A DNA stretch of 19,722 bases from Alkalispirochaeta sp. Lineage in GTDB: Bacteria > Spirochaetota > Spirochaetia > DSM-27196 > Alkalispirochaetaceae. The notes under the pieces were generated by a model. That model saw only the letters and a list, made by a program, of their open reading frames with translations. It was not told where the DNA came from and did no database searches. The stretch covers positions 1-19,722 of the forward strand of contig CBDESZ010000029.1 in NCBI GenBank assembly GCA_965242725.1, read 5' to 3'. The position numbers were made by a program, and so were the translations under genes. Shown here piece by piece: positions 11,091-19,211 of the stretch (position 1 is its first letter; each line of letters begins with the position of its first letter).

Positions 11091-11183
11091 TTTTTCCCGC
11101 CTTTCCTGAAGGATGCCTAATCTAAAAAGTGCCGTGTAAAAACGTCTCCCAAAATGACGCAAGAGCTCAACGGAGGTGCATGC

Positions 11184-12815
11184 ATGGCACATGGCGCACA
11201 CAACGGAGACCTGCCGACGGAACGCCTGAAGGCGCTTGAGAAGTCGGTGTTGGGTTTTTCCAGCCGATTCTGGAATCTCGTCTCGGTGACAAAATTGAAT
11301 GCTGCCTTTACCGGTGAAATCGTGCGGGAAACCGACGCGAACAGGGAGGCCCTCTCAAATACGGAAGCGGCGCTGCGGGAGATCAACCGGCAGGTCACCA
11401 ATATCGTGGAGGCGGCGGACCGATCCGAGAGGGAGGTTGAAGAGACGACCTCGTCGATTTCGGCGATCCGCGAGACGCTGAACAGCTTTTCCGGTGCACT
11501 GGAAGAGATGGAACGGCGATTCTCCGCCATGAGAAGCGCCTTTGAACTGGTCGACGACGCCGCCGGCAAGATCGGCGGAACGATTGGCGCCATTGAGGAT
11601 ATCTCGGACTTGACGAATCTTCTCGCCCTCAATGCCGCCATAGAAGCGGCGCGGGCAGGAGTACACGGGCGCGGGTTCAAAGTTGTTGCCGATGAGGTGA
11701 AACGGCTGGCCGATCAGAGCGGGGCCCTCACTGAAGACGTTTCGCACCGGCTGGCGGAACTGAGACGGCATGTCGGAGAAACCGTAGACACTATCGGAGA
11801 ATATGCGACGATGAAGTCACGCTTTACCACCCGCATATCCGACGCCGCAGGTGAGATGGTGAAGGCCATCGGCGCCATGGAAGAGGTGGAGCGACAAATA
11901 CAGGATGTTGCCCGGTCCGTGAGAAGTCAGCAGTCCTATATCGAGTCTGTGCACGATCAACTGGCCGGTGTGTCCCGTTCCGTCGAGAGTCTCCACCGTG
12001 CCAGTCATCACGTCGACACCAACCTCGCCACTGAGGAGGAGATGCTTGACCGTCTCGGTGCCGATGATACCGCCGTTCGTGACGGCCTTTCGCAGCTCTT
12101 CAGCCACGTCGCAAAATCCGGTGGCGGCCTCGGTGGCGAGGGACGAAACGTCGAGGGACACCATGTCGAAGGGTCCCGGACGGAGCTTTCCGGCATCCAC
12201 ATGGTCGTGGGACACGATCTGGCATATCCGCCGTGGTGCTATCTCGAGGACGGCCGGTCCCAGGGCATCAGCATCGACAGAATGAATGATATCGCCCGGG
12301 CACTTGATTTTGACGTCGTCTATCATCCCCGGCAGTTTGCGGACCTCTTCAAGGACTTTCGCGCCGGCCGGGTGCGGATCATGCTCAACATCGGCTGGCC
12401 CAACGACTATCTGCGGGATGCGGGGGTGATCGTCTCCGATCCCTATGCCCACTTTGAACCGGTGATATTCGTTTCCCGGGACAACGCACCTGAAGAAATG
12501 CAGTCGCCCGGCACCTTTGCCGACGCGCGTCTCGCCTGTCAGGCCGGCAGCTACGCGAAAAAGAGTATGGCCGCCTACGATCCGCACTATGTGTCGGTGG
12601 AAAACGATATCCAGGGCATGGCAAAAGTGATATGGGGGCGCGCCGATGGGGTGGTAACCGATCGTGCCGTGGGAACATACATTTCAAACCGTTTCTTTCG
12701 TGATTCCATCGTCCCCGCCACGGAGGCGCTGCAGAAGCTGGACGTGGTGATGGCGTTCCGGCCGGAGGACGAGGCGTTGCGGGACCGCATGAACGATATC
12801 CTGCGGACACGGTAG
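11184..12815 (+). CDS. Soluble methyl-accepting chemotaxis protein with C-terminal family-3 solute-binding (PBPb) domain
   Basis: Hairpin tip ISDLTNLLALNAAIEAARAGVHGRGFKVVADEVKRLA. C-terminal VVGHDLAYPPWCYLEDGRSQGISID...GRADGVVTD typical of SBP_bac_3. No TM or signal peptide. GGAGG SD 7 nt before ATG 11184. Confidence 0.9.
   Translation: MAHGAHNGDLPTERLKALEKSVLGFSSRFWNLVSVTKLNAAFTGEIVRETDANREALSNTEAALREINRQVTNIVEAADRSEREVEETTSSISAIRETLNSFSGALEEMERRFSAMRSAFELVDDAAGKIGGTIGAIEDISDLTNLLALNAAIEAARAGVHGRGFKVVADEVKRLADQSGALTEDVSHRLAELRRHVGETVDTIGEYATMKSRFTTRISDAAGEMVKAIGAMEEVERQIQDVARSVRSQQSYIESVHDQLAGVSRSVESLHRASHHVDTNLATEEEMLDRLGADDTAVRDGLSQLFSHVAKSGGGLGGEGRNVEGHHVEGSRTELSGIHMVVGHDLAYPPWCYLEDGRSQGISIDRMNDIARALDFDVVYHPRQFADLFKDFRAGRVRIMLNIGWPNDYLRDAGVIVSDPYAHFEPVIFVSRDNAPEEMQSPGTFADARLACQAGSYAKKSMAAYDPHYVSVENDIQGMAKVIWGRADGVVTDRAVGTYISNRFFRDSIVPATEALQKLDVVMAFRPEDEALRDRMNDILRTR
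12138..12176 (+). repeat. Imperfect 15-nt in-frame tandem repeat in the MCP interdomain linker
   Basis: GAGGGACGAAACGTC / GAGGGACACCATGTC / GAAGGGTCC encodes EGRNV-EGHHV-EGS. Confidence 0.6.
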
Positions 12816-12817
12816 AA

Positions 12818-12836
12818 ATACCGCCCATTGCGGTAT
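12818..12836 (+). terminator. Hairpin after the MCP stop
   Basis: ATACCGC-CCATT-GCGGTAT 7-bp stem. No U-tract, so termination is uncertain. Confidence 0.35.
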
Positions 12837-12879
12837 GTCCCGTATGCGTCGACAGGGACTCTGTGGTAAGGTCTTCGCT

Positions 12880-13488
12880 GTGGAAACAGGTAGTTCTATT
12901 CATGCCGGAGACGAAGCAGTATCGCACGGAACGGCGGCGGTTCCGGCACCTTCCCTGGCAAACATACTCGCCGTGCTCGGAGCGGTGGCGATGTTTTTCT
13001 CAACCCTCGAATTTCTCATTCCGAAACCGGTACCCTTTTTCCGAATCGGGCTTGCAAACATTCCGTTGCTCCTCGTCATTCCCACCTTTCGTATTCGACA
13101 CATTGTTGCACTCACCCTGCTGAAAGTCCTTGGTCAGGGCCTCATTAACGGAACGCTTGCGAGCTACGTATTTCTCTTCTCCCTCGGGGGTTCCCTTGCC
13201 AGTGTATTGGTCATGATAGCGATTTCCCGGGTGGGCGGACGGCATGTGACGCTGATCGGGGTCAGTACCGCCGGAGCGCTGGCGAGCAATATCGTACAGA
13301 TCGTCCTTTCCGTCGTCTTTATATTCGGCCCCACTTCATGGATCATCGCACCTCCCTTTCTCCTCCTCGGTACGATTGCCGGATTCTTTGTCGGCGTGGT
13401 GGCTGAGTATTTTCTCTCCTTTTCCCGGTGGATCGAGTTGCTGATACGCGATTATCGTCTGGTGGTGGCCGCCGGGGGCGTTGAGTGA
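12880..13488 (+). CDS. Gx transporter family membrane protein (PF07456 'heptaprenyl diphosphate synthase component I', EetB-like ECF S-type)
   Basis: LEFLIPKPVPFFRIGLAN, F.FSLGGSLAS, IGVS.AGA..SN..Q family motifs, about 6 TM. Start uncertain (GTG 12880 or ATG 12835/12844). Confidence 0.85.
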   Translation: METGSSIHAGDEAVSHGTAAVPAPSLANILAVLGAVAMFFSTLEFLIPKPVPFFRIGLANIPLLLVIPTFRIRHIVALTLLKVLGQGLINGTLASYVFLFSLGGSLASVLVMIAISRVGGRHVTLIGVSTAGALASNIVQIVLSVVFIFGPTSWIIAPPFLLLGTIAGFFVGVVAEYFLSFSRWIELLIRDYRLVVAAGGVE

Positions 13489-14120
13489 GTCTCCGCCGTC
13501 AAAATCCCTGGATGGTCGGCAATATCGCCGCGAGAGATCTCTTTATTGCCGGTATGGTGACGCTTCCCGCATTTCTCCTGCAGGAAAGCGTCATTATCCG
13601 TCTTGCCCAGGTCATTCTCTTCGGATGGTTTACCGTGCTGGCAGGCAAGCGGCTTTTATGGCTCTATTTCATCACAATTTCGATCGGTATAACCTTTTTT
13701 CACCTTCTCATTCCGACGGGTACCGTTCTTTTCGAAATCGCCTCCTTTCCCGTAACCTCAGGAGCGTTGCGCAGCGGAGTGTACAAGGCGCTGACCATCG
13801 TCGGAATGGTCTTTATTTCACTTGTTTCGGTCCGCGCCGATTTGAAACTGCCCGGGCGGGCGGGAATGGTTGTGGGAAAGCTATTCTGGTCGTTTGAACA
13901 GATCATGGAAGGGCGCGATACCTTGCGTTTTTCCGCTCCCCTGAAAAGCGCCGATGAACTGCTGGTGGGCGTCTATACGTCGCTGCGGTTCATGGACAAT
14001 GAGGTTGCGGAAACACAATCGCGTAAGGCGACGGCGGCTCGGTCGAGTCGTATCGGCATAATCGTACTCGTCCTTTGTGTACTGTCCCAATGGGTCCTTC
14101 TCTTTCTTCAGTCCGGATGA
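13485..14120 (+). CDS. Membrane protein resembling a degenerate ECF transporter T (CbiQ/FmnA-like) component
   Basis: Several TM helices with P.G.VLF.I..F.VT.GAL..G...AL segment seen in EcfT N-terminal regions. GTGA overlap with the Gx gene stop. Confidence 0.6.
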   Translation: MSLRRQNPWMVGNIAARDLFIAGMVTLPAFLLQESVIIRLAQVILFGWFTVLAGKRLLWLYFITISIGITFFHLLIPTGTVLFEIASFPVTSGALRSGVYKALTIVGMVFISLVSVRADLKLPGRAGMVVGKLFWSFEQIMEGRDTLRFSAPLKSADELLVGVYTSLRFMDNEVAETQSRKATAARSSRIGIIVLVLCVLSQWVLLFLQSG

Positions 14121-14172: not shown

Positions 14173-15231
14173 ATGTACAACGTCCTTGTCAGTGGAATTC
14201 AACAACTCGGAGTGGGAGTTCCCAACGTAGACGAAGCATTTGAATGGTATCGAAATACCCTTGATCTGGACGTGCCGGTATTCAGGGAAGCGGCGGAAGC
14301 TCCCTACATGACATCCTATACGGGGGGAGCCGTCCAGAGCAGGGACGCAATGCTGGCGGTAAACCTCGCAGGCGGCGGCGGATTTGAAATCTGGCAGTAC
14401 ACGAGCCGCACGCCCGAGCCGCCGGAAAAACCGATCGAAATCGGGGATTACGGGCTCCTCGTCGGACGTATCAAGACACGGGGAGTGCATCAGGCGTACC
14501 AGCGGTTGCAGGCGCAGGGCGTGGACGTCCTTGGTGGTGTCCACGACGATCCCGAGGGCCGCCCCCGCGTCGGATTCCGCGATCCCTGGGGCAACCATTT
14601 TCAACTCGTGGAAAGCGACGACTGGTTTTCCAGGCCCCGCCGACAGACGGGAGGCGTTGCCGGTGCGGTAATCGGCGTCTCCGACATGGCTGCGGCGCTT
14701 GACTTCTATGCCACCGTTCTCGGCTATGACACCAAAATATATGATGAACACGATCTGTTTGCCGATCTTGCCTCCTTTCCCGGTGGAGACCGTCGATTGA
14801 GACGGGTACTCCTGACACGATCGGCCGGTCATGCCGGCGCATTCAGCCGCCTCTTCGGCGAGACGCGAATTGAACTCGTGGAAGTATCGGGGCATACGGG
14901 GCGACGGTCATTTGAAAACCGCTTCTGGGGTGATCTGGGATTCATTCACCTCTGTTTCGACATCGTGGGAATGGACATTCTCAAGACCCGCTGCGAGGCG
15001 GCGGGACATCCCTTTACCGTGGATTCCGGTTCCCGGTTTGATATGGGTGAAGCGGGAGGTCGGTTTGCCTATATAGAGGATCCCGACGGAACCCTCATTG
15101 AATTTGTGGAGACCCACAAAGTCCCGGTGATGAAAAAACTGAACTGGTACCTCGACCTGGAAAAACGGGGAATGGAAAAACCCCTTCCCCGATGGATGAT
15201 CAAGGCGATGGGGCTCGGTCGGGTGCGATAA
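14173..15231 (+). CDS. Tandem-domain VOC (glyoxalase/epimerase superfamily) protein, 352 aa
   Basis: GIQQLGVGV.NVDEA..WY, GFEIWQY, FRDPWGNHFQLVE, IGVSDM..A..FY..VLG, RIELVE, FIHLCFD, YIEDPDGTLIEFVE. Confidence 0.9.
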   Translation: MYNVLVSGIQQLGVGVPNVDEAFEWYRNTLDLDVPVFREAAEAPYMTSYTGGAVQSRDAMLAVNLAGGGGFEIWQYTSRTPEPPEKPIEIGDYGLLVGRIKTRGVHQAYQRLQAQGVDVLGGVHDDPEGRPRVGFRDPWGNHFQLVESDDWFSRPRRQTGGVAGAVIGVSDMAAALDFYATVLGYDTKIYDEHDLFADLASFPGGDRRLRRVLLTRSAGHAGAFSRLFGETRIELVEVSGHTGRRSFENRFWGDLGFIHLCFDIVGMDILKTRCEAAGHPFTVDSGSRFDMGEAGGRFAYIEDPDGTLIEFVETHKVPVMKKLNWYLDLEKRGMEKPLPRWMIKAMGLGRVR

Positions 15232-15367: not shown

Positions 15368-16696
15368 TCAGATTCCGTATACTTTGCGAATCATTCGGTC
15401 CTCGTCGTCCGTCATTGAAAGTCTGAGGCCCAGATTGTCCCGCATATGCTTGAAGACCGCGATCGTCTGCCGGACGTCCTCTTCTTCATGCATCGCCGTA
15501 GGAATCATCCGGAACATGAGCAGGCCCAGCGGAATGACGGGGTAGGCAATTGCAGTGACGAAGACGCCGTTCCGGCGCAGAAACCCTGACGTGGCGGCAC
15601 CGATCTTTTCAACTCCGTCTTCACCGACGGGGACAAAGACGGAACAGATCATAGACTCCCCGGGGCCGACATAAAATCCAAGTTCCTTCAATCCCGACTT
15701 GAGCTCGTTGCTGCGGGCCCACATTTTTGCCCGGCGGTCATCACCCGCCTTTACCAGGTCGAACGTCTTCCGGAGTGTCTGTACATAGACCATGGGCAGG
15801 CTTTTGGCAAAGACCTGGGTTCGTGCGTTATAGGCGATCCAGTCGGTCACCGCCTTGTCTGAAGCGGAAAAACCTCCGATGGAGGCAAAACTCTTGGCAA
15901 AGGTGCCGAAGTAGATATCGATATCGTCCTGGACACCGAAATGGGCCGCCGTGCCCTTACCCTGGGGGCCTATCGTGCCCCAGCCGTGGGCGTCGTCTAT
16001 AAATATCCGTGCCTCATACTTCCGCGCCAGGGCGGCGATATCGGCCAGCGGAGCCAGATCTCCGGTCATGCCGTATACGCCCTCGGTGACGATCATGACG
16101 CCTCCCTTGCGGTCGCGGTTGACCCGTTTGAGGACCTGTTCCAGGTTGTCCATATTATTGTGCTTGAACACGCGCAATTGAGCGCCGTTCATCGCCTGGG
16201 CCTGAAACGCGCCGTCCACGATGCAGGCGTGATCAAGTTTGTCCATGACGATCGTATCTTCTTTGCCTGCCAGCGCCTGGATCGTCCCGATGACACCCAT
16301 GTAGCCGTAGTTGAAGAGAAAGGCTGCTTCCTTTTCCGCGTGGTCCGCCAGTTCCCTTTCAAATGCAAGGTGGTATTCGGTGTTGCCGCTCATCATGCGG
16401 GAACCCATCGGTGAGCTTACACCGAAGTCATCGATCGTTGTCCGGGCCACGTCGAGAACATCCGGATGGTTTGCAAGACCGAGGTAATTGTTGACCGACC
16501 ACATAATGTGTTTTTTGCCCTTGAACTCCATGTGTCGGGAGGGGTTGGGCGGGAGCAGGGGGCGGGTGAATTCATCGTCGCCCATCGCCCGCATCTTGCC
16601 GAAATAGCCGCCGTCGGTGTGGCATTTTGCAAAGAGATCGGTATGACCTTCCGCCTTTGCGGCGCTATCCTGTTCTGCCTGTTCGTCTAATAGCAT
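15368..16696 (-). CDS. PLP-dependent alpha-oxoamine synthase, SulA/CapB-like cysteate acyltransferase (candidate 3-ketocapnine synthase), 442 aa
   Basis: WSVNNYLGLANHP, PMGSRMMSG, FNYGYMG, HACIVDG, EGVYGMTGD, DDAHG, GTFAKS (PLP Lys268), YNARTQVFAKSLP (Lys298), YPVIP..., RMIPTA.H. GAGGAG SD before ATG 16696. AOS family is near-certain, substrate is inferred. Confidence 0.85.
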   Translation of the reverse strand: MLLDEQAEQDSAAKAEGHTDLFAKCHTDGGYFGKMRAMGDDEFTRPLLPPNPSRHMEFKGKKHIMWSVNNYLGLANHPDVLDVARTTIDDFGVSSPMGSRMMSGNTEYHLAFERELADHAEKEAAFLFNYGYMGVIGTIQALAGKEDTIVMDKLDHACIVDGAFQAQAMNGAQLRVFKHNNMDNLEQVLKRVNRDRKGGVMIVTEGVYGMTGDLAPLADIAALARKYEARIFIDDAHGWGTIGPQGKGTAAHFGVQDDIDIYFGTFAKSFASIGGFSASDKAVTDWIAYNARTQVFAKSLPMVYVQTLRKTFDLVKAGDDRRAKMWARSNELKSGLKELGFYVGPGESMICSVFVPVGEDGVEKIGAATSGFLRRNGVFVTAIAYPVIPLGLLMFRMIPTAMHEEEDVRQTIAVFKHMRDNLGLRLSMTDDEDRMIRKVYGI

Positions 16697-16895
16697 TGTT
16701 CTAGTACTCCTCGGAAAATGCCGCCTCTCTGAACGTCGGCGACTTTCGGGTACTCTCGACAAAATTCGGATGTATGTCCATATCCCGGGTAGTGAAAGAC
16801 GACCGACGGGGAGACATTTACCGGTGAGTATCCCCGGCATCCCCGTCATGTGCGGAAGTCGACGCATAAATCGAGAAAAAAACGAAATTTTCAAA

Positions 16896-16920
16896 GTGAA
16901 TATCTGAACAAAAGATTCAC
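16896..16920. promoter_or_regulatory. Inverted repeat between the divergent AOS and TetR genes (candidate operator)
   Basis: GTGAAT-N13-ATTCAC in the AT-rich part of the intergenic region. Confidence 0.35.
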
Positions 16921-16959
16921 GGAATCAAACGGACACTTTCGAATCGTTAATGACCGTAC

Positions 16960-16965
16960 TATACT
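16960..16965 (+). promoter_or_regulatory. -10 box of a probable leaderless TetR transcript
   Basis: TATACT lies 6 nt before ATG 16972, no SD. TTCGAA (16938-16943) is a possible -35. Confidence 0.55.
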
Positions 16966-16971
16966 GCCCCT

Positions 16972-17623
16972 ATGAAAGCCAATCGGCGTAACCTCATCAT
17001 CAAATCCGGAATGGACCTCTTCTCGCGCTACGGGTATCGCGATGTCTCGGTGGAGGACATCATGCGCGGCGCCGGACTGAGCGTGGGGACATTCTACAAA
17101 TACTTTCGCAGCAAGGAAAACTTCTATGAAGACATCCTGCGACTCATCCAGCGTGAAGGCATCCGCAAAGCCGAAGCGATGGTGGAGCGACTGCACTCTC
17201 CCATTAACAAGTTGCGGGCGGTCTATCGATTCGTCATTCTCGGTTTGCGACGGTATCCGATCCTGCGTGGTGTTCTCGGAAGGGACGAACGCTTTCTCTA
17301 TCCCGGTATTGACGTGGGCTCGGGAGGAATCGGGATTCTGCGCAAGCGGATTGAGGAGATCCTTGACGAAATCATACGTGAAGGATCGCGACGGAACGTC
17401 TTTCGGCCCGGCCTCTATCACAATGCGCACCGCCTGGTCGTCGTTCTGTTGGACACGGTCATTATCCATCTCGACGATCCTCATATCGACACCGTTTCCC
17501 AGGATATTGCTGACACTCATACAGCGCGGTCTGAAGCGGACGCTCCGGCTTCGTCGCCGGGCGGAACGGCTGGACCGGCGCCTTGAGCGTTCCGGTGAAG
17601 ATATCAATTGGCTTGAAACTTGA
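16972..17623 (+). CDS. TetR/AcrR-family transcriptional regulator, probable +1 insertion near 17498-17509 (as-read stop at 17586)
   Basis: HTH RRNLIIKSGMDLFSRYGYRDVSVEDIMRGAGLSVGTFYKYFRSKENFY. After about 17500 the +1 frame reads LTLIQRGLKR..., a typical terminal TetR helix, and ends at 17623. Confidence 0.88.
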
Positions 17624-17681: not shown

Positions 17682-19211
17682 ATGCAACTGGTTTTGTTGA
17701 TCACCCTTCCTCTTGCAGGTGTAATTCTAGGTTGGACGATTCGCTGGCTGTATGCCAGGTTTCAGCTGTCTTCGACTGAACAGCGTGCAGAGCGTCTGAA
17801 GAAAGACGCCGCGAAAGATGCGGAAGCACGCAAGAAAGAGCTGATACTAGAGACAAGAGATGCGCTTCAGCGCGAACGAAATGAACAGGAGCGGGAACTT
17901 CGGGAGCGGCAGAAAGAACTGCAGCGACTGGAACAACGACTGTTACAGAAAGAAGAGAACCTAGAAGCCAAGTCCAATGCCCTGGAAAAGGAGCAGCAGG
18001 ATCTGGCGTCCCGTGAGAGGAATCTAGACGAGCGAAATAAATTCCTGGAGGAGCAGGAAATCCATTGGCGGAACGAGATGGAGAGGATCTCCGGTCTCAC
18101 CCAGGAGGAAGCGAGAAAGCTCATCATCTCTTCATTGGAGGATGAGGCGCGTCACGAGGCGCAGGGACTCGTCAATAAGATAGAACAGGAAGCCGTCGCG
18201 ACGGCGGAAAAGACGGCCCGGGAAATTCTCGTCTCCACAGTCCAGCGCGTCGCAAGCGAGGTGAATACGGAAGTTACCGTTTCATCGGTGAGCCTCCCCA
18301 ACGACGAAATGAAGGGGCGTATCATCGGTCGGGAAGGGCGGAACATCCGTACTCTGGAGACCCTCACCGGCGTGGACATCATTATCGACGACACCCCCGA
18401 GGCGGTTGTCGTCTCGTGCTTTGAACCCGTCCGTAAAGAGATCGCTAAACGATCCCTTGAGCGCCTCGTCACCGACGGTCGCATCCATCCGACGCGCATT
18501 GAGGAGGTGGTTCAGAAAGTCACCGCCGATATGACGCAGACGATCTATGAAGAGGGTGAAAAGGTTCTTTACGACCTCAACATTCACCACATTCGTCCCG
18601 AGGGTGTTCGCGGGCTGGGACGCCTCGCGTTCCGGACGAGCTACGGTCAGAACGTTCTCGCCCACAGCAAAGAAGTTGCCGTGCTTGCGGGGACGATCGC
18701 CGCAGAGATCGGCGCCGACGTGGAAATCGCCAAGCGGGGCGGAATCCTTCACGACATCGGGAAGGGCATCGAGACCGACGGGGACAGTAACCATGTAGAG
18801 CTTGGAGTTGAGCTGGCGAAGCGGCTGGGTGAAGACGCCCGCGTCATTAACTGTATCGCCGCACACCACGGCGATGTGCCCCACAACTGCATTGAGTCGG
18901 TGATCGTTCAGGTTGCCGACGCGATTTCCGCGTCACGTCCGGGAGCGCGCCGGGAAACCCTTGATAACTACATCAAGCGCCTTGAAAACCTCGAGGCGAT
19001 CGCCGAGGAATATGACGGCGTTGAAAAGGCGTATGCGATTCAGGCAGGTCGGGAGCTCCGCATCATGGTCAACCACGAAAAGGTGAGCGACCAGGAAGCG
19101 CGGGAAATCGCGAAGAAAATCGCCCGCAATATCGAGGATCAGTTGCGCTATCCCGGTAGAATCAAAGTGACGATGATTCGGGAAACCCGGGTCGTCGAAT
19201 ACGCGCGATAG
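17682..19211 (+). CDS. rny: Ribonuclease Y
   Basis: N-terminal TM, long coiled coil, KH domain EMKGRIIGREGRNIR, FRTSYGQN, HD domain LHDIGK, ADAISASRPGAR, AIQAGRELR. Confidence 0.98.
   Translation: MQLVLLITLPLAGVILGWTIRWLYARFQLSSTEQRAERLKKDAAKDAEARKKELILETRDALQRERNEQERELRERQKELQRLEQRLLQKEENLEAKSNALEKEQQDLASRERNLDERNKFLEEQEIHWRNEMERISGLTQEEARKLIISSLEDEARHEAQGLVNKIEQEAVATAEKTAREILVSTVQRVASEVNTEVTVSSVSLPNDEMKGRIIGREGRNIRTLETLTGVDIIIDDTPEAVVVSCFEPVRKEIAKRSLERLVTDGRIHPTRIEEVVQKVTADMTQTIYEEGEKVLYDLNIHHIRPEGVRGLGRLAFRTSYGQNVLAHSKEVAVLAGTIAAEIGADVEIAKRGGILHDIGKGIETDGDSNHVELGVELAKRLGEDARVINCIAAHHGDVPHNCIESVIVQVADAISASRPGARRETLDNYIKRLENLEAIAEEYDGVEKAYAIQAGRELRIMVNHEKVSDQEAREIAKKIARNIEDQLRYPGRIKVTMIRETRVVEYAR

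Follow-up and report, generated by a model that had tools for sequence, protein, structure and literature searches.

Does a spirochaete carry a cysteate acyltransferase of the sulfonolipid pathway, and if so, where would its cysteate come from? The question is raised by one gene in the window analysed here, the whole 19,722-nucleotide stretch of an Alkalispirochaeta sp. assembly (GCA_965242725.1, contig CBDESZ010000029.1), which a preliminary description had read as a SulA/CapB-type enzyme. One passage of a 2023 review describes the making of sulfonolipids by bacteria as an apparently Bacteroidota-restricted trait that may be incompatible with sphingolipid synthesis (PMC10191378), and a gut-genome survey retained, after filtering, 42 Bacteroidota species and one Firmicutes_A species, with no "spiroch" in the accessible part of its text (PMC11525784). 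According to excerpts of a further paper, loose homologues of the reductase occur in 13 phyla and the later enzymes of the pathway are largely unknown (PMC11211663). In the titles and abstract openings searched, together with a passage of PMC8319176, we found no report of spirochaete sulfonolipids; papers that mention both sulfonolipids and spirochaetes exist, and supplements may list homologues.

Family membership and pocket of the acyltransferase

The acyltransferase gene lies on the minus strand (15368-16696), and translation from 16696 gives 442 codons free of stops. An alternative TTG start further upstream would give a frame of 508 aa, but we prefer the 442-aa start since the close homologues have this length and share the same initial Met. 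Re-translation returned the frame, motifs and lysine codons exactly as first described: WSVNNYLGLANHP at residues 66-78, PMGSRMMSG at 96-104, NYGY at 129-132, GTFAKS at 264-269 and YNARTQVFAKSLP at 289-301. Lys268 (codon 15893-15895, minus strand) is the PLP Schiff-base lysine, equivalent to CapB K250 and SulA K251, while Lys298 (codon 15803-15805, minus strand) is the lysine diagnostic of the CFAT clade, which replaces an Ala and forms a pocket wall in SulA. When aligned to the PDB sequences, Lys298 pairs with CapB K280 and SulA K281 with no local gaps, and all 121 close homologues, a count that includes the query, have it, so it is not a chance residue. Only 16 of the 150 best 50%-cluster representatives carry Lys at this position; 12 of these were placed in our tree, and all 12 fall inside the CFAT-like clade. 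The close homologues with names come from Spirochaeta sp. (91% over 81% of the length), Spirochaetaceae and Spirochaetales, and JGI calls such homologues "glycine C-acetyltransferase", which bears out the expectation that automatic annotation hides the protein as a Kbl/BioF type. A sigma-70 promoter scan found 0 sites against 1.1 expected, and the listed pieces of RNA run X4 gave a single 75-base match, 85% alike, on the gene.

The best PDB matches are CapB (28EH; 354 bits over residues 20-422) and SulA (7U7H; 344 bits), compared to 229 bits for the best serine palmitoyltransferase (SPT) and at most 192 bits for Kbl/BioF. The NCBIfam models for SPT, Kbl, BioF and ALAS all scored below cut-off, the best at 297.5 bits (BioF cut-off 426). 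PF00155, K268, the AlphaFold2 model and Foldseek agree on a fold-type I alpha-oxoamine synthase with a PLP lysine, and the model (pLDDT 93.8) is closest to SulA among the Foldseek matches listed (TM 0.85, 41% identity), which do not include CapB 28EH. At the eight positions that differ between CapB and S. multivorum SPT, the protein is CapB-like at six, conservatively changed at one (Y130 for F113) and SPT-like at one (S99). In a FastTree phylogeny of 74 sequences, in which six assayed CFATs were represented by proteins of Bernardetia, Aureibacter and unnamed Bacteroidota-type sources and G009 was left out (we use our own handles for genomes, G000 being the present assembly), the window protein falls within the CFAT-like clade with a support of 1.00, apart from SPT, BioF and Kbl. 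This genome's own SPT-like gene (contig C4) and Kbl gene (contig C18) fall outside that clade. The spirochaete sequences form a group with a Rhodothermaceae fusion and a gene from a Legionella lytica plasmid. This group adjoins the Bacteroidota branch, and identity between the spirochaete sequences and Bacteroidota-type CFATs is no more than about 41-43%. Sequence, tree, fold and the gene neighbourhood in relatives all give good support to the SulA/CapB-type family call, and the enzyme is very probably a cysteate acyltransferase.

The extra lysine had also been proposed to bind the sulfonate, a point that the literature corrects. In the sections available, SulA K281A binds cysteate normally but loses activity, which is ascribed to loss of the pocket wall and opening of the pocket (PMC9304779). 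Likewise, in the accessible parts of the account of the CapB-cysteate structure, the sulfonate is bonded by Asn52, His139 and Lys250, and the backbone of Lys280 contacts the PLP phosphate (PMC13692747). Since K281A still binds cysteate and other residues hold the sulfonate, Lys298 is a diagnostic residue whose role, by analogy, is likely structural. Those same parts of PMC13692747 list 18 pocket residues of CapB; 15 of them are identical in our alignment, the differences being S99 for A82, Y130 for F113 and V295 for M277 (CapB numbering second). The PMGSR motif thus has an SPT-like Ser where both solved CFATs carry Ala, and Ser99 is common to 111 of the 121 close homologues.

Compared to CapB/CO-CFAT of Capnocytophaga ochracea (28EH, 28FA; PMC13692747 in part), the window protein keeps residues including N69, Y132, H156, C158, E205, K268 and K298, but it sits on a separate branch of the clade and in a spirochaete host. 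The equivalents of N53, H140, K251, K281 and R376 of Alistipes finegoldii SulA (7U7H; PMC9304779 in part) are kept as well, whereas the phylum is another, no synthase was found in this genome and acyltransferase activity here is predicted. The nearest named relative outside the spirochaetes, at 52% identity, is the uncharacterised Rhodothermaceae fatty acyl-AMP ligase-ACP-AOS fusion (MBX2821842.1; P0123/P0273), which shares the SPMGSRM and FAKSLP motifs and groups among the spirochaete sequences, a position that depends on weak nodes. It has three domains and its own acyl carrier, while the window protein has only 442 aa. S. multivorum SPT (3A2B), Kbl and BioF share the fold and PLP chemistry (TM 0.76-0.83) and have Ser at position 99, but they are about 30% identical, score at least 125 bits lower, lack Lys298 and belong to another clade.

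Several related genes deserve separate mention. The L. lytica plasmid NZ_CP071528.1 (L040:7989-12860) carries a CFAT-like gene (44% identity) that retains the diagnostic Lys, and after it genes for a fatty acyl-AMP ligase-ACP-ComA fusion and for ComB. Together they make up a predicted self-contained sulfonate-lipid cluster of a gammaproteobacterium that would use the phosphosulfolactate route. Ligase-ACP-CFAT fusions of 1049-1127 aa (P0123/P0273, P0124, P0127; one from a named Rhodothermaceae) are candidates for a halophile sulfonolipid route. The CFAT-like proteins P0130, P0134, P0156, P0141, P0206 and P0133, of which P0156 lies outside the tree, have His, Arg or Glu at the diagnostic position and possibly act on other substrates. 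In the present genome, the SPT-like gene G000:C4:123275-124528 (L130) reaches 490 bits against the NCBIfam SerpalmtaseCFB cut-off of 640, and within genus g1 a profile search matched this type in this genome only. No adjoining ceramide genes were recognised; the gene may make sphingoid bases beside sulfonolipids.

The acyltransferase-synthase pair and the locus in this genome

In 400 other genomes of the phylum, each at least 90% complete, the same 15 carried both the acyltransferase and a TIGR03844 synthase over cut-off and 385 carried neither, although nine of the 15 come from one family and are not independent. Within the order (70 genomes), 41 hold both genes, five the acyltransferase only, five the synthase only, and 19 have no match to either. 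Of the 41, 38 carry the two as direct neighbours, and the pair is also found in six other families of the phylum. The usual family layout is rny, a divergent TetR gene, synthase, acyltransferase and a convergent VOC gene, while the row in G034 reads cysD-cysNC-synthase-CFAT-cysH. Ca. Haliotispira prima carries the pair too, with its synthase at 309 bits, just under the cut-off of 324.9; a scan of named genomes, made with a single protein, returned one true relative. Such gene context in relatives is a strong argument for cysteate use in the spirochaete clade. The partner synthase of these relatives is archaeal-type and not CapA, as beside CapB; a passage of the review assigns the archaeal type to Alistipes and Odoribacter as well, in terms not found in the paper cited there (PMC10191378). 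CapA was rejected as the partner enzyme, with the NF053679 cut-off passed in 0 of 41 genomes, and so was the ComA route found beside the related L. lytica gene, over cut-off in 0 of 41. Genus g16 (G458:C262, G459:C231, G037:C161) has an archaeal-type synthase with no acyltransferase match, the G037 copy being split over two frames, which means that the synthase can also be used for something else.

In the window, a gap of 275 bp (16697-16971) stands in place of the roughly 1.3 kb archaeal-type synthase gene of relatives. We found no synthase remnant in these 275 bp by a test that did reveal one in G007. Misassembly was rejected as the origin of the gap, as contigs of runs X1 and X2 span it without extra letters; both runs are of one sample, possibly the source of the window itself. 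The gap contains an imperfect inverted repeat, TGAA..N..ATTCA (16897-16919, 23 bp), a putative TetR operator conserved in the family, matched in the window and in eight of the nine intergenic regions of relatives scanned. It is followed by the divergent TetR-family regulator (16972-17623, plus strand), whose frame is shifted near 17507 by one extra base. Since contigs of three runs lack this base, the frameshift is likely an assembly error. The RNase Y gene (17682-19211, plus strand) is a conserved landmark that fixes the locus and lies outside the pathway. At the other end of the window, a DnaB-like helicase gene (18-1354) is spread over three frames (18-398, 280-990 and 824-1354), likely an indel error of the same kind.

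The same loss of the synthase at the locus, with the CFAT kept, is seen in G007 (where a 50-codon remnant persists), G020 and G443, and no synthase was found elsewhere in those genomes; for synthase presence, G005, G016 and G465 are contig-end cases. G002 and G012 have no synthase at the locus either, but hold copies on short separate contigs, one beside cysH, that group with family f6 (support 0.92). Such a regained foreign synthase suggests a lasting demand for cysteate. The acyltransferase itself is under continued purifying selection. Four pairs that include this genome give a dN/dS of 0.04-0.06, similar to the 0.04-0.09 of other pairs, although recent relaxation would be invisible in these values, as dS is near saturation and the pairs span time before the loss.

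Candidate partner genes

Neither a cysteate synthase nor a ketoreductase was found among the nine window proteins scanned, as the preliminary description had it, and whole-genome searches placed no cysteate synthase in the window and a candidate SDR on a separate contig, C16 (210064-210813). This SDR shares 44-47% identity with the SDRs flanking the locus in G023 and G033, its kin also flank Bacteroidota-type loci, and it was matched in 28 of 29 CFAT-positive versus two of 12 CFAT-negative genomes. We regard it as a candidate ketoreductase on these grounds.

Convergent to the acyltransferase gene lies a gene for a double-VOC (glyoxalase-fold) protein of 352 aa (14173-15231, plus strand). In the stretches fetched, it is near 27 of 36 spirochaete CFAT loci, with four of the nine misses at contig ends, and it was present elsewhere in all five CFAT-positive genomes retested. 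Five distant CFAT-positive genomes gave one strong match, two weak ones (33-36%) and two misses, and ten CFAT-negative genomes a single weak match of 30%. The next kin of the protein are from named Bacteroidota and Rhodothermales (55-61%). In a metagenome survey that examined the best 80 of 567 VOC loci found with a Bacteroidota-led alignment, an SDR was present at 24 of the 80 (19 at 40% or above, same-stranded and upstream). At four of the 80 the gene immediately upstream encodes a FAK/YAK-type acyltransferase, while most of these best 80 had no SDR or acyltransferase neighbour. One VOC locus has the order CapA-like gene (508 bits, cut-off 600), NAD epimerase, SDR, CFAT, VOC. Columns invariant across the family map to Gln10/Gln11, Glu72, His259 and Glu310 of the window protein, which we take to resemble a glyoxalase-I-type metal site. 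A fold search with a model of the Bacteroidota homologue P0382 returned generic glyoxalase-fold matches of at most 16% identity, and an Atlas search with the VOC protein returned unannotated VOC clusters. Linkage and co-occurrence together make the double-VOC protein a predicted member of the pathway, and the linkage suggests that it may have a role in long-chain-base lipid synthesis. We found no report of a VOC protein in the sulfonolipid pathway in the titles and abstract openings searched, nor in the PMC8319176 passage.

Further along the window, a Gx-transporter-like gene (PF07456) and a conserved 211-aa membrane-type gene without a family match (12835-14120) recur beside the VOC gene in relatives. 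A gene at 11154-12815 joins an MCP signalling domain (PF00015) to a periplasmic-binding-protein family 3 domain (PF00497).

Sources of cysteate and the standing of the pathway

The present assembly is 91.8% complete and shallow, with a contig depth of 2-4. Its best CapA match reaches 210 bits against the NF053679 cut-off of 600, its best match to the archaeal-type synthase reaches 49 bits against the TIGR03844 cut-off of 325, and the synthases of relatives used as queries match nothing in it. Neither ComA nor cysteine dioxygenase was found in the assembly, nor was CysH, with CysD and CysNC present. A synthase may have been missed, given the completeness and depth of the assembly. That this organism itself makes sulfonolipids is a weaker claim than for its relatives, since its assembly yielded no cysteate source that we could recognise.

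A threonine-synthase-like gene on C18, the source of the 49-bit match, was rejected as a cysteate synthase and sits in a molybdoenzyme-type cluster. We also considered an SsuABC/TauABC-like transporter beside cysM on C6, which scores below all curated cut-offs. The 40 kb block that holds it is 99% identical to one in G003, which has its own synthase, and a C6-type transporter was not found in G007 or G020. With close matches in G000 and G003 only, of 41 genomes, the transporter was rejected as a general substitute, and it remains a weak candidate for cysteate uptake here. The block (G000:C6:53478-93353; cysM, a CymR-like regulator and the transporter) is 99.3-99.6% identical to G003:C1 even though core genes differ by about 25%, which indicates either a recent transfer or mis-binning. 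At G000:C3:77627-91889, cysD and cysNC stand beside glycosyltransferase- and sulfotransferase-like ORFs (neighbours read by eye) and no cysH, an arrangement that suggests PAPS for sulfation and not a supply of sulfite.

Since the adjacent synthase has been lost, the acyltransferase would likely depend on external cysteate. We tentatively favour, at close to but below an even chance for the statement as a whole, a working PLP-dependent cysteate acyltransferase that is fed by salvaged cysteate after loss of the synthase. By analogy with SulA and CapB, PLP on Lys268 would form an external aldimine with cysteate, Lys298 from the other subunit would close the pocket, and decarboxylative condensation with acyl-ACP would yield a 3-ketocapnine-type base. 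The C16 SDR would then reduce the ketone, a further enzyme would presumably carry out N-acylation, and the double-VOC protein would act somewhere in the same pathway; TetR may regulate the acyltransferase gene via the inverted repeat, as co-occurrence and linkage suggest for all but the N-acylation. The route of cysteate uptake is the least certain step, with the C6 transporter as a candidate only.

It is possible, though unlikely, that the same enzyme and lipid are served by a relocated or re-acquired synthase, with its sulfite source, in an unassembled part of the genome. The f6-related copies on short contigs in G002 and G012 set a precedent for this, and the shallow, 91.8%-complete assembly leaves room for it, but four genomes would all have to miss the gene (G000 at 92%, G007 at 83%, G020 at 90% and G443 at 92% completeness), and CysH is likewise not found.

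A shift of the enzyme to another amino acid (Ser, Ala, Gly or similar), which would make the synthase dispensable, is improbable. It would fit the SPT-like Ser99, the repeated loss of the synthase with the acyltransferase retained, and the faster divergence, relative to the CFAT, of the synthase of the nearest relatives G006 and G009 (dN ratio 4.9, versus 2.0-3.8 in 12 other pairs). However, the pocket motifs are all identical to those of synthase-bearing relatives, the only clade-specific residues are A221 and M349, neither of which is a pocket position in the published passages available, and Bacteroidota-type FAKS/YAKS enzymes have Ser at position 99 too, including one whose operon holds a CapA-like gene. 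Moreover, CapB with as many as 19 residues exchanged acquired no activity on serine, as reported in the accessible parts of PMC13692747, and this genome has a separate SPT-like gene.

We consider it just as improbable that the acyltransferase is a recent relic of a pathway being lost and has yet to decay. No substrate source was found in the assembly, and G011 and G015, of the same genus and 94-95% complete, have no CFAT, synthase, SDR or VOC matches, so full loss of the pathway does happen. Yet the frame is intact, the rate against outgroup G003 shows no increase (dN 0.092 here versus 0.090 for G006), and the CFAT, operator, TetR, VOC and SDR persist where the synthase left no remnant.

Least probable of all is that another enzyme supplies cysteate, either CysM, which may use sulfite as a nucleophile in a side activity, passes its cut-off and lies beside the CymR-like regulator and SsuABC-like transporter, or transamination of sulfopyruvate, with Ldh_2-family dehydrogenases present in the genome: CysM-like matches turn up often among relatives that have the synthase, whereas G007 and G020 gave just one CysK-like match, the neighbours of the Ldh_2 genes are of sugar-acid-type transport and catabolism, and neither CysH nor ComA was found.

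Returning to the salvage of cysteate by a working acyltransferase, the finding amounts to known chemistry predicted in a new lineage, with a well-supported member of the CFAT clade. A broader reading, that free-living spirochaetes are a second large sulfonolipid reservoir, that some of their lineages live on scavenged cysteate and that the VOC protein is a capnine-pathway enzyme, possibly of a late step, strikes us as doubtful at present; it draws on the linkage of the VOC gene to the acyltransferase and SDR in Spirochaetota and Bacteroidota-type loci, and the VOC gene offers a concrete knockout target in tractable Bacteroidota. The separate SPT-like gene suggests that both long-chain-base routes may coexist in one genome. 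With the pair in 41 of 70 genomes of the order and in six other families, sulfonolipids in sediments or hosts would not be markers of Bacteroidota alone, and the repeated occurrence of the acyltransferase in genomes where no cysteate source can be recognised suggests that cysteate is obtained by cross-feeding.
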